64,000 nucleotides of DNA from Candidatus Methanomethylicia archaeon. Lineage in GTDB: Archaea > Thermoproteota > Methanomethylicia > Culexarchaeales > Culexarchaeaceae. Location of the stretch: positions 152,345-216,344 of the forward strand of contig JAVYVS010000003.1 of NCBI GenBank assembly GCA_038727515.1, read 5' to 3'. The position numbers and the translations under genes were made by a program. Positions 25,562 through 58,966 of the stretch are shown in pieces (the stretch's first letter is position 1; each line of letters starts with the position of its first letter). Under the pieces are notes generated by a model. That model was not told where the DNA came from. It made no database searches and worked only from the letters and a program-made list of their open reading frames with translations.

Positions 25562-25904
25562 ATGTAGGGTAAGTAGCGAGGCGGGTTCCGAGTAAAACTG
25601 GCGACAGTTTTACTTGAGGAAGCCCACCCCCACTGTGGCGCCGCAACCCCATAAGGGGTAGGGCGAAAGCCCTAGCTATGGCACAGAAATAACACCCCTT
25701 CTGGTTATATGAGGATGATACACGCACCAAGCCTTGCAAAAGGCTGAATTAAGCTGTTGACGAGACCAGAAGAGTGGTTGAAAAAGCCAGGCTTGCGGGG
25801 GCAAGGCCAAAAAGAGCTGATGAGCTGCCACACGAAGCTCAGGTAGGCCGCTTAGACGAATCCCGCCATAAACAAAAGGTGGGCTATCGCTACTTACCCT
25901 ACAT
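25562..25904 (+). ncRNA. rnpB: RNase P RNA
   Basis: GAGGAAGCCCACC...AACAAAAGGTGGGCTA (P4), ACAGAAA, GGGGCAAG; terminal stem ATGTAGGGTAAGTAGCGA/TCGCTACTTACCCTACAT; mature ends may be shorter. Confidence 0.93.
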
Positions 25905-51920: not shown

Positions 51921-52009
51921 GGGGCCGTAGGCTAGCTTGGAAGGCTGCGGGGTTAGGAGTATCCCCCCATTGGGTCCCCGTGACCGGAGTTCAAATCTCC
52001 GCGGCCCCA
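51921..52009 (+). tRNA. tRNA-Pro(TGG) with 16-nt non-canonical intron at 33/34 (51955-51970)
   Basis: GGGGCCG/CGGCCCC; removing AGGAGTATCCCCCCAT gives loop TT-TGG-GT; BHB with GGGG/CCCC helix. Confidence 0.88.
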
Positions 52010-52088
52010 CATTATTTATGTTATTGTAAAGTATGAAAACAAATCTTAAAACAAGCAAATAAAGATAAATTTTTCACACAATATAAAT

Positions 52089-54014: not shown

Positions 54015-54179
54015 TGGTGGGGCCGGTGGGATTTGAACCCACGACCAACGGGTTTCCCCTAGCTCCAGAGCATCATCATTAATTCAGATTTATTTTCTAT
54101 ACAGCTCTGGAGCCCGCCGCTCTACCTTACTGAGCTACGGCTTATCGCCTTTTTCAAGTCCCGACCCTTATACGGCCCC
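54015..54179 (-). tRNA. tRNA-Trp(CCA) with 53-nt intron at 37/38 (54054-54106) and a 35-nt insertion near the 5' end (54136-54170); CCA encoded
   Basis: GGGGCCG/CGGCCCC-ACCA; stem GCGGG/CCCGT; loop CT-CCA-G|A; cloverleaf is complete only if both inserts are removed. Confidence 0.82.
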
Positions 54180-54419
54180 AAAAAAATTAATTACAAAATT
54201 ATATGTAAACTTTTTTCTTAATGCTAATTTTAAATACTATTATATATAACAATAAAGATAGAGGGATTATTCAAAATAGAAATGAAAACATAAAAGTTCT
54301 AATAAGTTATCAAATACCATTGACTAAATTTATGAACCAAAAAAGAGTAATGAATAAAAGTGCTAAAAAGAATATTTAATCTATTTAAATACCTTGTTTA
54401 TTTGTTTTATTGATGTTAA

Positions 54420-58648: not shown

Positions 58649-58774
<126 letters not shown>

Positions 58775-58863: not shown

Positions 58864-58966
58864 GCCGGGGTCGCCTAGCGTGGTAAGGGCGCCGGACTCA
58901 TAATCAACTAATTAGAGGGGTAGATGTGAAATCCGGTTCTCGCGGGTTCAAGTCCCGCCCCCGGCA
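58864..58966 (+). tRNA. elongator tRNA-Met(CAT) with 28-nt intron at 37/38 (58903-58930)
   Basis: GCCGGGG/CCCCGGC-A; CCGGA-CTCATA|A-TCCGG; relaxed BHB. Confidence 0.88.

Follow-up and report, generated by a model that had tools for sequence, protein, structure and literature searches.

A probable intron at position 3/4 and a conserved leader copy of the acceptor strand in the tRNA-Trp gene of a Culexarchaeia archaeon

The tRNA-Trp(CCA) gene on the minus strand of the window (the whole stretch of 64,000 nucleotides analysed here) carries the 5' strand of its acceptor stem more than once, which raises the question of which copy enters the mature tRNA and what becomes of the sequence in between. 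Read along the minus strand, to which all coordinates of this gene refer, the locus begins with GGGGCCGTA (54179-54171), continues with the 35-nt TAAGGGTCGGGACTTGAAAAAGGCGATAAGCCGTA (54170-54136) and GCTCAG, and then runs through the remainder of tRNA-Trp(CCA), including an intron at 37/38 and an encoded CCA. The hexanucleotide GCCGTA is present twice at the 5' end of the gene, at 54176-54171 and 54141-54136. The first-pass annotation had drawn attention to the 35 nt as an insertion bounded by this repeat, and the sequence could be confirmed on the minus strand, as could its observation on the acceptor stem, in which the internal copy accounts for 4 bp and the upstream GGGGCCG (54173-54179) for 7 bp with CGGCCCC, the 3' acceptor strand (54025-54019), to which it is complementary at 7/7 positions.

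The genome holding the window is archaeal, 94% complete, 1.59 Mb in size and 33% G+C, and its 16S rRNA, at 60% G+C, suggests a thermophile. The lineage is Culexarchaeia (Thermoproteota), and the paper on this group (PMC9723716) makes no mention of tRNA introns. The expectation that tRNA-Trp would be single-copy was borne out: a genome search for a second copy in the 94%-complete assembly found one tRNA-Trp gene among 44-46 tRNA genes. Standard tools either misplace the start of this gene or align just part of it; ARAGORN, with introns allowed, sets the start at the internal copy, and the alignment to the Rfam tRNA model covers positions 4-67 only.

The answer probably lies within the 35 nt themselves. 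It had been stated that no strict BHB was found, a motif that was missed because the intron was assumed to start at the upstream copy. A strict hBHBh' can nevertheless be read inside the supposed insert, with its 5' bulge (GG|A, 54161-54159) within the 35 nt, as GG / GTCG / GGA / hairpin / CGAT / AAG / CC. Its central helix, GTCG/CGAT, consists of 4 bp between two 3-nt bulges, GGA and AAG, on opposite strands. The 5' strand of this helix, GTCG, occupies 54162-54165, and its last base, 54162, is the mature G1; the 3' strand, CGAT, occupies 54147-54144. The 5' bulge GGA (54159-54161) holds G2 (54161) and G3 (54160), and the 5' splice site follows directly after G3, before 54159; the 3' bulge AAG ends in G4 (54141). 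On the outside, the two leader bases GG (54166-54167) pair with C5 and C6 (54140-54139) to form helix h (GG:CC, 2 bp), and on the inside CTT/AGG forms helix h' (3 bp).

The rule that cleavage falls after the second bulge base was calibrated on the 37/38 intron of this gene and on tRNA-Glu(CUC), and this geometry gives a 5' cut at 54160/54159 and a 3' cut at 54142/54141. We therefore read the gene, with considerable confidence, as carrying a standard BHB intron of 18 nt at position 3/4, ACTTGAAAAAGGCGATAA (54142-54159), an assignment that draws on the BHB alignment, covariation and restoration of the tRNA. The intron comprises the hairpin CTT-GAAAA-AGG, CGAT and the two A's of the 3' bulge, and removal of both introns leaves a perfect 77-nt tRNA-Trp(CCA) with a 7-bp acceptor stem. 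The earlier proposal of an intron at a very unusual position is thus upheld, in the form of a conserved and covarying BHB intron at 3/4, as is, in evolutionary terms, that of an insertion relative to the ancestral gene. The intron is, however, not the 35 nt bounded by GCCGTA, since its 5' splice site falls inside that segment, and with a standard hBHBh' no different excision route is needed. We infer that the upstream GGGGCCGTATAAGGGTC (54179-54163) is a 17-nt 5' leader and not mature tRNA, and that its GGGGCCG is likewise leader, not the mature acceptor strand for which it had been taken.

When applied to single sequences of intron-bearing tRNAs, a BHB scan with loose rules yields many chance motifs, and we therefore place the weight on conservation, covariation and the precision with which splicing restores the tRNA. 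The 12/12 insert-bearing loci, drawn from four families, conform to the BHB rule, and in all of them the elements follow one another in the same order, namely GNNG, GG plus one base, a hairpin, a block complementary to GNNG, two bases plus G, and CCGT. The 5' bulge is GGA or GGT in 12/12 Trp loci. All 4 pairs of the central helix are formed in all 12 sequences (100% paired), with the two middle pairs changing on both sides (GTCG/CGAT, GCTG/CAGT, GCCG/CGGT, GTTG/CAAT and GGTG/CACT). The covariation score of 0.406 compares with 0.216 in shuffles, 0/500 of which reach 0.406, and in slid controls pairing drops to just 31-47%. The same helix and bulges were recovered by RNAalifold from ten full precursors. 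In the 12-sequence alignment, the inner helix h' is 97% paired and shows compensatory changes, and the outer helix h has at least 2 bp in 10/12 relatives and 1 bp, the relaxed form, in two; a GC pair occupies one of its two positions in 12/12 sequences and the other in 10/12. When the 47-nt 5' segment of this genome's gene is folded in isolation, its MFE structure is one other than the BHB.

Across the relatives the 3/4 intron ranges from 14 to 30 nt in length, and the same junction, GGG|GCCG, is formed at all loci. Without exception, GGG is spelled out by the helix end together with the 5' bulge, and a G closes the 3' bulge just ahead of CCGT; splicing therefore rebuilds GGGGCCG at every locus. 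Family f6 forces the junction to 3/4 independently, because the upstream element of its members has three G's only.

The layout extends well beyond one assembly. Among 40 related genomes searched, it is found in 10/10 readable tRNA-Trp loci of the order, an eleventh locus cut by a contig end having been left out of this count. One further family, f6, has it in both genomes, and it recurs on 11 metagenome contigs, which are mostly sources of the same MAGs, show no variation of the acceptor stem and include one clearly new variant (L174). Such an occurrence in the order, in f6 and on metagenome contigs shows that the insert is not an assembly artefact. The 3/4 insert is absent from the other 48 genomes of the class, and a search of 149 other sampled genomes of the phylum with a Trp-specific model, R1, brought up no comparable case. 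The one weak R1 match, L178, was rejected as coding-like sequence with no tRNA features, and a scan for tRNA-Trp with GGGW upstream was also set aside as too loose, being mostly random bacterial among the matches listed.

Across the relatives the insert is conserved, but the 6-nt repeat as its boundary is not, in contrast to the 7-nt copy of the acceptor strand. The GCCGTA repeat is not preserved in families f2 and f3, where the 7-nt acceptor copy is kept; that the repeat survives in the closest relatives only (elsewhere the sequence reads, e.g., GGGGCCGAA...ACGCCGTA) speaks against an inert scar of target-site duplication.

Other families of the class differ in this gene. In f4, f5 and f7 (loci read among L012-L030), tRNA-Trp is without the 3/4 intron and has, together with the 37/38 intron, a non-canonical intron of ~20-25 nt, which was placed by eye at ~28/29 and displays H5' GACG, bulge GCA, a GC-rich hairpin and H3' CGTT. 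Hence, the intron that accompanies the one at 37/38 in this gene is of two alternative kinds within the class.

Introns at position 3/4 have been described in tRNAs of Thermoproteales, where they were regarded as an "extreme case" (Sugahara 2008 via PMC4090602). As far as the description given there allows comparison, the resemblance extends to the position, the 4-bp helix, the two 3-nt bulges and the flanking helices, as well as to the phylum Thermoproteota, the two-subunit EndA of broad specificity and the second, canonical intron in the gene. By the same description, the present case is unlike those in that it occurs in Culexarchaeia and one neighbouring family and that the tRNA is Trp. The 3/4 intron of tRNA-Trp is a known kind of intron in a new lineage.

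The remainder of the gene is more conventional. Exon 2 (54107-54141) covers tRNA positions 4-37 and is followed by a canonical 37/38 intron of 53 nt (54054-54106; BHB CTCC / AG|A ... GGGG / AA|A) and by exon 3 (54015-54053; positions 38-76), which holds CGGCCCC, A73 (54018) and the encoded CCA (54017-54015). The 37/38 intron contains box C/D-like elements together with a guide that shows complementarity to the anticodon region, and it is of the same kind as the box C/D guide intron at 37/38 of euryarchaeal pre-tRNA-Trp, as cited in PMC4090602; from that citation, the intron type is known from Euryarchaeota, whereas the host here belongs to Thermoproteota, and the likeness says nothing about the 3/4 intron. 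Two of its elements, box C (ATGATGA) and the 10-nt guide GCTCTGGAGC, recur across the order in the 37/38 intron, and the CTGA of this genome is replaced by a GACC-like sequence in relatives. Pairing of the guide competes with the BHB fold of the same intron.

If the mature acceptor strand is rebuilt by splicing, the presence of a further GGGGCCG in the leader calls for an explanation. In 10/10 loci of the order and on the metagenome contig L174, the leader copy is GGGGCCG or GGGGCTG, and the spacer that follows, TATAA in this gene (54168-54172), varies between relatives in both length (~3-7 nt) and sequence. The sole substitution in the copy, C6 to T in two genomes of family f3, preserves the pair with G67. 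The Trp leader copy of f6 is weaker (5/7, 5 bp, register-shifted), and the two f6 genomes differ from one another by this same C/T change in their shifted copy.

The position of the copy relative to the promoter is equally regular. The predicted promoter of this gene (54202-54217) combines a purine-rich BRE-like GAAAAAAG (54217-54210) with a TATA-like TTTACATA (54209-54202), its start, as read from the sequence, lying 30 nt before the first G of the copy. A promoter-like element (GAAAAA-nTTAyCAy / TATTTAGG) starts 29-36 nt upstream of the copy in 12/12 loci, and the transcript is predicted to start at the copy or up to ~6 nt before it. In class relatives without the 3/4 intron, a similar element starts ~30-35 nt before the mature G1 in 6/7 of those checked. 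Judging by the promoter spacing in loci with and without the intron, the leader copy would occupy the ancestral +1.

Folding predicts a cloverleaf with one extra arm, the BHB, in which the copy is the partner of the 3' acceptor strand; this holds for the MFE structures of 10/10 order precursors and for the RNAalifold consensus. Because the Trp acceptor stem is invariant across relatives, this pairing cannot show covariation within Trp. At the 43 other tRNA genes of this genome, no pairing-competent 7-mer was found within 45 nt upstream.

On these grounds, we lean, without great assurance, towards the view that the upstream GGGGCCG has a function, serving as a spare acceptor strand borne by the leader. 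The principal alternative, which we consider improbable though worth weighing, accepts the 3/4 intron as real and regards the copy as functionless, the ancestral 5' end having been stranded when the intron and new G1-G3 were inserted by a duplication or a mobile element. The distance from the promoter to the copy, which equals that to the mature G1 in most class relatives checked that lack the 3/4 intron, is what such an event would leave. In addition, a published model ties intron gain to the duplication of a 5' tRNA fragment by an integrating element (PMC3293823): for tRNA-Thr of Caldiarchaeum subterraneum, disruption by the element is proposed to have left the fragment in duplicate. Both cases present an intron-bearing tRNA gene with a copy of its own 5' part upstream, and a duplication of that type fits a copy at the ancestral +1; however, the tRNA-Trp copy is just 7 nt long, is 5-9 nt away in the same transcript and is conserved order-wide, and there is no recombinase or element between the copies.

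A functionless copy would also be in keeping with the small thermodynamic benefit that it brings. In cofolding at 80 C, the copy strengthens the attachment of the 5' exon by just ~2.6 kcal/mol, since GGGUCGG is itself able to pair with the 3' strand, and in the MFE structure of the spliced intermediate the leader copy, not the true strand, stays on the 3' strand, so that strand exchange is not favoured by the energy model. Neither cofolding nor folding of the spliced intermediate clearly favours the tether role or the exchange. We note that the 5' side of the 3/4 BHB, GGGTCGGG (54160-54167), can form 7 pairs with 54019-54025, one of them G-U; without a competitor, the 3' acceptor strand could unfold the 3/4 splice motif.

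What weighs against a functionless copy is its persistence. A neutral relic is expected to decay, yet the 7 positions persist in three families of the order beside a spacer that is scrambled in length and sequence, and the only change, C to T, keeps the pairing. A further argument comes from other tRNA genes. In the f6 relative G014, four tRNA genes have an Rfam match that is cut at the 5' end, and in all four the introns use the acceptor strand and lie at or before 10/11 (Trp, 3/4; a second tRNA, 3/4; Lys(UUU), 9/10; and Gln(CUG), 10/11). An upstream copy of the gene's own acceptor strand is present in 4/4, with three acceptor sequences covered: the Trp copy is the register-shifted 5/7 match, that of the second tRNA is GGGGCTG, that of Lys reads GGGCTCG against GGGCCCG in the acceptor strand, and that of Gln is identical to its acceptor strand (AGCCCGG). 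By contrast, there is no upstream copy at 24 other full-length tRNA genes of G014, two artefacts set aside. Since each copy matches the gene's own, different acceptor strand, a relic of a single tRNA-Trp event cannot explain them. The two apparent copies that were discarded are L205, a tRNA-Glu with a D-loop intron that Rfam had mis-aligned, and L192, the 3' end of an adjoining tRNA.

The second tRNA-like gene of f6 (L165:419-469, minus strand, in G017; L166:342-388, minus strand, in G014) has the tRNA-Trp layout, with the leader GGGGCTG, a BHB intron at 3/4, the central helix GGTG/CACT shared with Trp and an acceptor stem as in Trp, together with a class-I body and a 37/38 intron. Its anticodon loop CTTGAA implies the anticodon UGA, and there is no long variable arm; the Ser(UGA) label given by ARAGORN rests on an implausible fold. 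The G014 tRNA-Lys(UUU) gene (L179; C30:33100-33420, minus strand) has a 14-nt intron at 9/10 with a BHB that uses G1-G7, and its GGGCTCG copy is located 6 nt upstream and, combined with the same 3' half, could give rise to an alternative BHB. In tRNA-Gln(CUG) (L180; C30:14950-15260), the intron, at 10/11, is also 14 nt long, the BHB uses positions 5-8, and the AGCCCGG copy is 2 nt upstream.

Whether the surrogate acceptor strand is a general cis helper, acquired or retained whenever a BHB borrows the real acceptor strand, we regard, from the sequences at hand, as evenly poised. While splicing proceeds, a helper of this kind would secure or protect the 3' acceptor strand; RNase P would then dispose of the helper.

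A second alternative, which we deem very improbable, is that the upstream GGGGCCG is the mature acceptor strand after all and that the whole 35 nt are removed, at a junction anywhere from 3/4 to 9/10, through a relaxed motif or by another route. The mature sequence would be identical, and the copy does lie at the predicted transcript start with perfect pairing to the 3' strand. Nevertheless, the upstream site is without bulge-helix geometry, the preceding TTTG being unable to pair with CGAT, whereas the conserved and covarying BHB sets the 5' cut 17 nt further downstream, and EndA recognises a BHB regardless of context (PMC4090602; PMC3241643). In distant relatives, moreover, the two copies differ, with GGGGCTG upstream and GCCG downstream. 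Least probable of all is that the insert stays unspliced, in a pseudogene or in a working tRNA that bears an additional arm between its acceptor and D stems: the precursor does fold as a cloverleaf with an extra arm, but this is the sole tRNA-Trp gene found, the insert is conserved in every genome of the order, and an extra arm needs neither two 3-nt bulges at exact 4-bp spacing nor bulges spelling G1-G4. The large 8/9 loop considered earlier leaves it unexplained why G1-G3 and G4 can always be read from the helix end and the two bulges.

The genome encodes enzymes that would be called upon to splice an intron at 3/4. There are two paralogs of the splicing endonuclease EndA (PF01974/PF02778; 188 and 174 aa), the first of which is nearest to the catalytic subunits of the A. 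pernix and P. aerophilum heterotetramers (3p1z_B, 2.9e-48; 3ajv_B; 2zyz_B) and appears from this match to be the catalytic one, resembling crenarchaeal alpha subunits. EndA of the crenarchaeal heterotetramer type cuts non-canonical introns (PMC4090602; PMC5829648), and such introns are present outside the window in tRNA-Arg(UCU), Ser(UGA), Gly(GCC) and Glu(UUC) of the same genome. RtcB (606 bits) and RNase P RNA (193 bits; 25569-25897 of the window, plus strand) are encoded as well.

Within the window, tRNA-Pro(UGG), within 51921-52010 on the plus strand, has a 16-nt non-canonical intron on the 5' side of the anticodon and is labelled Ser(GGA) by plain ARAGORN, and a tRNA-Met (58864-58966, plus strand) has a 28-nt intron. 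The RNase P RNA begins just 67 nt downstream of the 23S rRNA, in the same orientation, and may be co-transcribed with the rRNA operon. The 16S-23S spacer is without a tRNA, and the 5S rRNA lies apart at 58651-58771 (minus strand).

Taking the sequence, the covariation and the enzymes in the genome together, the maturation of tRNA-Trp could be envisaged as follows. Transcription would start at or near 54179, and for as long as the BHB sequesters the true strand, the 3' acceptor strand would have the leader copy as its partner. The 5' half of the BHB would consist of the leader's GG in the outer helix and GTC at the start of the central helix, followed by G1 of the tRNA and by G2-G3 in the bulge. 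The two-subunit EndA would cut after G3 (54160) and before G4 (54141), and RtcB would join the exons, thereby creating GGGGCCG. Strand exchange would then put the true 5' strand onto the 3' strand, RNase P would cut before 54162 and release the 17-nt leader, and the 37/38 intron would be excised in the usual way. Pairing between the copy and the 3' strand would keep the precursor tRNA-shaped, protect the G-rich 5' side of the BHB against invasion by the 3' strand and retain the tiny 5' exon until ligation. Since the BHB's own 5' side, GGGUCGG, is another potential partner of the 3' strand, the copy may mainly shield the BHB; on folding models, it may also tether the 20-nt 5' exon.

Several features of this pathway have counterparts in the split and permuted tRNA genes of Nanoarchaeum equitans, Caldivirga, Thermofilum and Cyanidioschyzon (PMC4033280, PMC3218864, PMC3978253), in which part of the BHB is made from leader sequence that does not enter the mature tRNA, the pieces stay together until ligation through base pairs absent from the mature fold, and RNase P processes the ends once splicing is done. 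Unlike those genes, tRNA-Trp here is one continuous transcript in normal order, and its putative holding helix is formed between the acceptor-strand copy and its own 3' strand, not between leader and trailer. The reviews of archaeal tRNA introns that we consulted do not mention a leader copy, and a limited literature search returned no description of a conserved leader copy of the acceptor strand.

Collectively, these results correct the annotation of the sole tRNA-Trp gene of a whole archaeal order and, with the 3/4 intron read as above, extend the range of a rare class of introns beyond Thermoproteales. The 5' exon of pre-tRNA-Trp would supply just three bases of the mature tRNA, and the spare strand offers a testable answer to how a precursor can fold and be ligated when its splice signal consumes the acceptor strand. 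If the helper proves general, it would represent an element of archaeal tRNA maturation that has so far gone undescribed, and the leader copy could be a usable signature for hidden introns close to the acceptor stem. If it is both real and general, an origin of acceptor-stem introns would also suggest itself, in which the old 5' end was kept as a helper.
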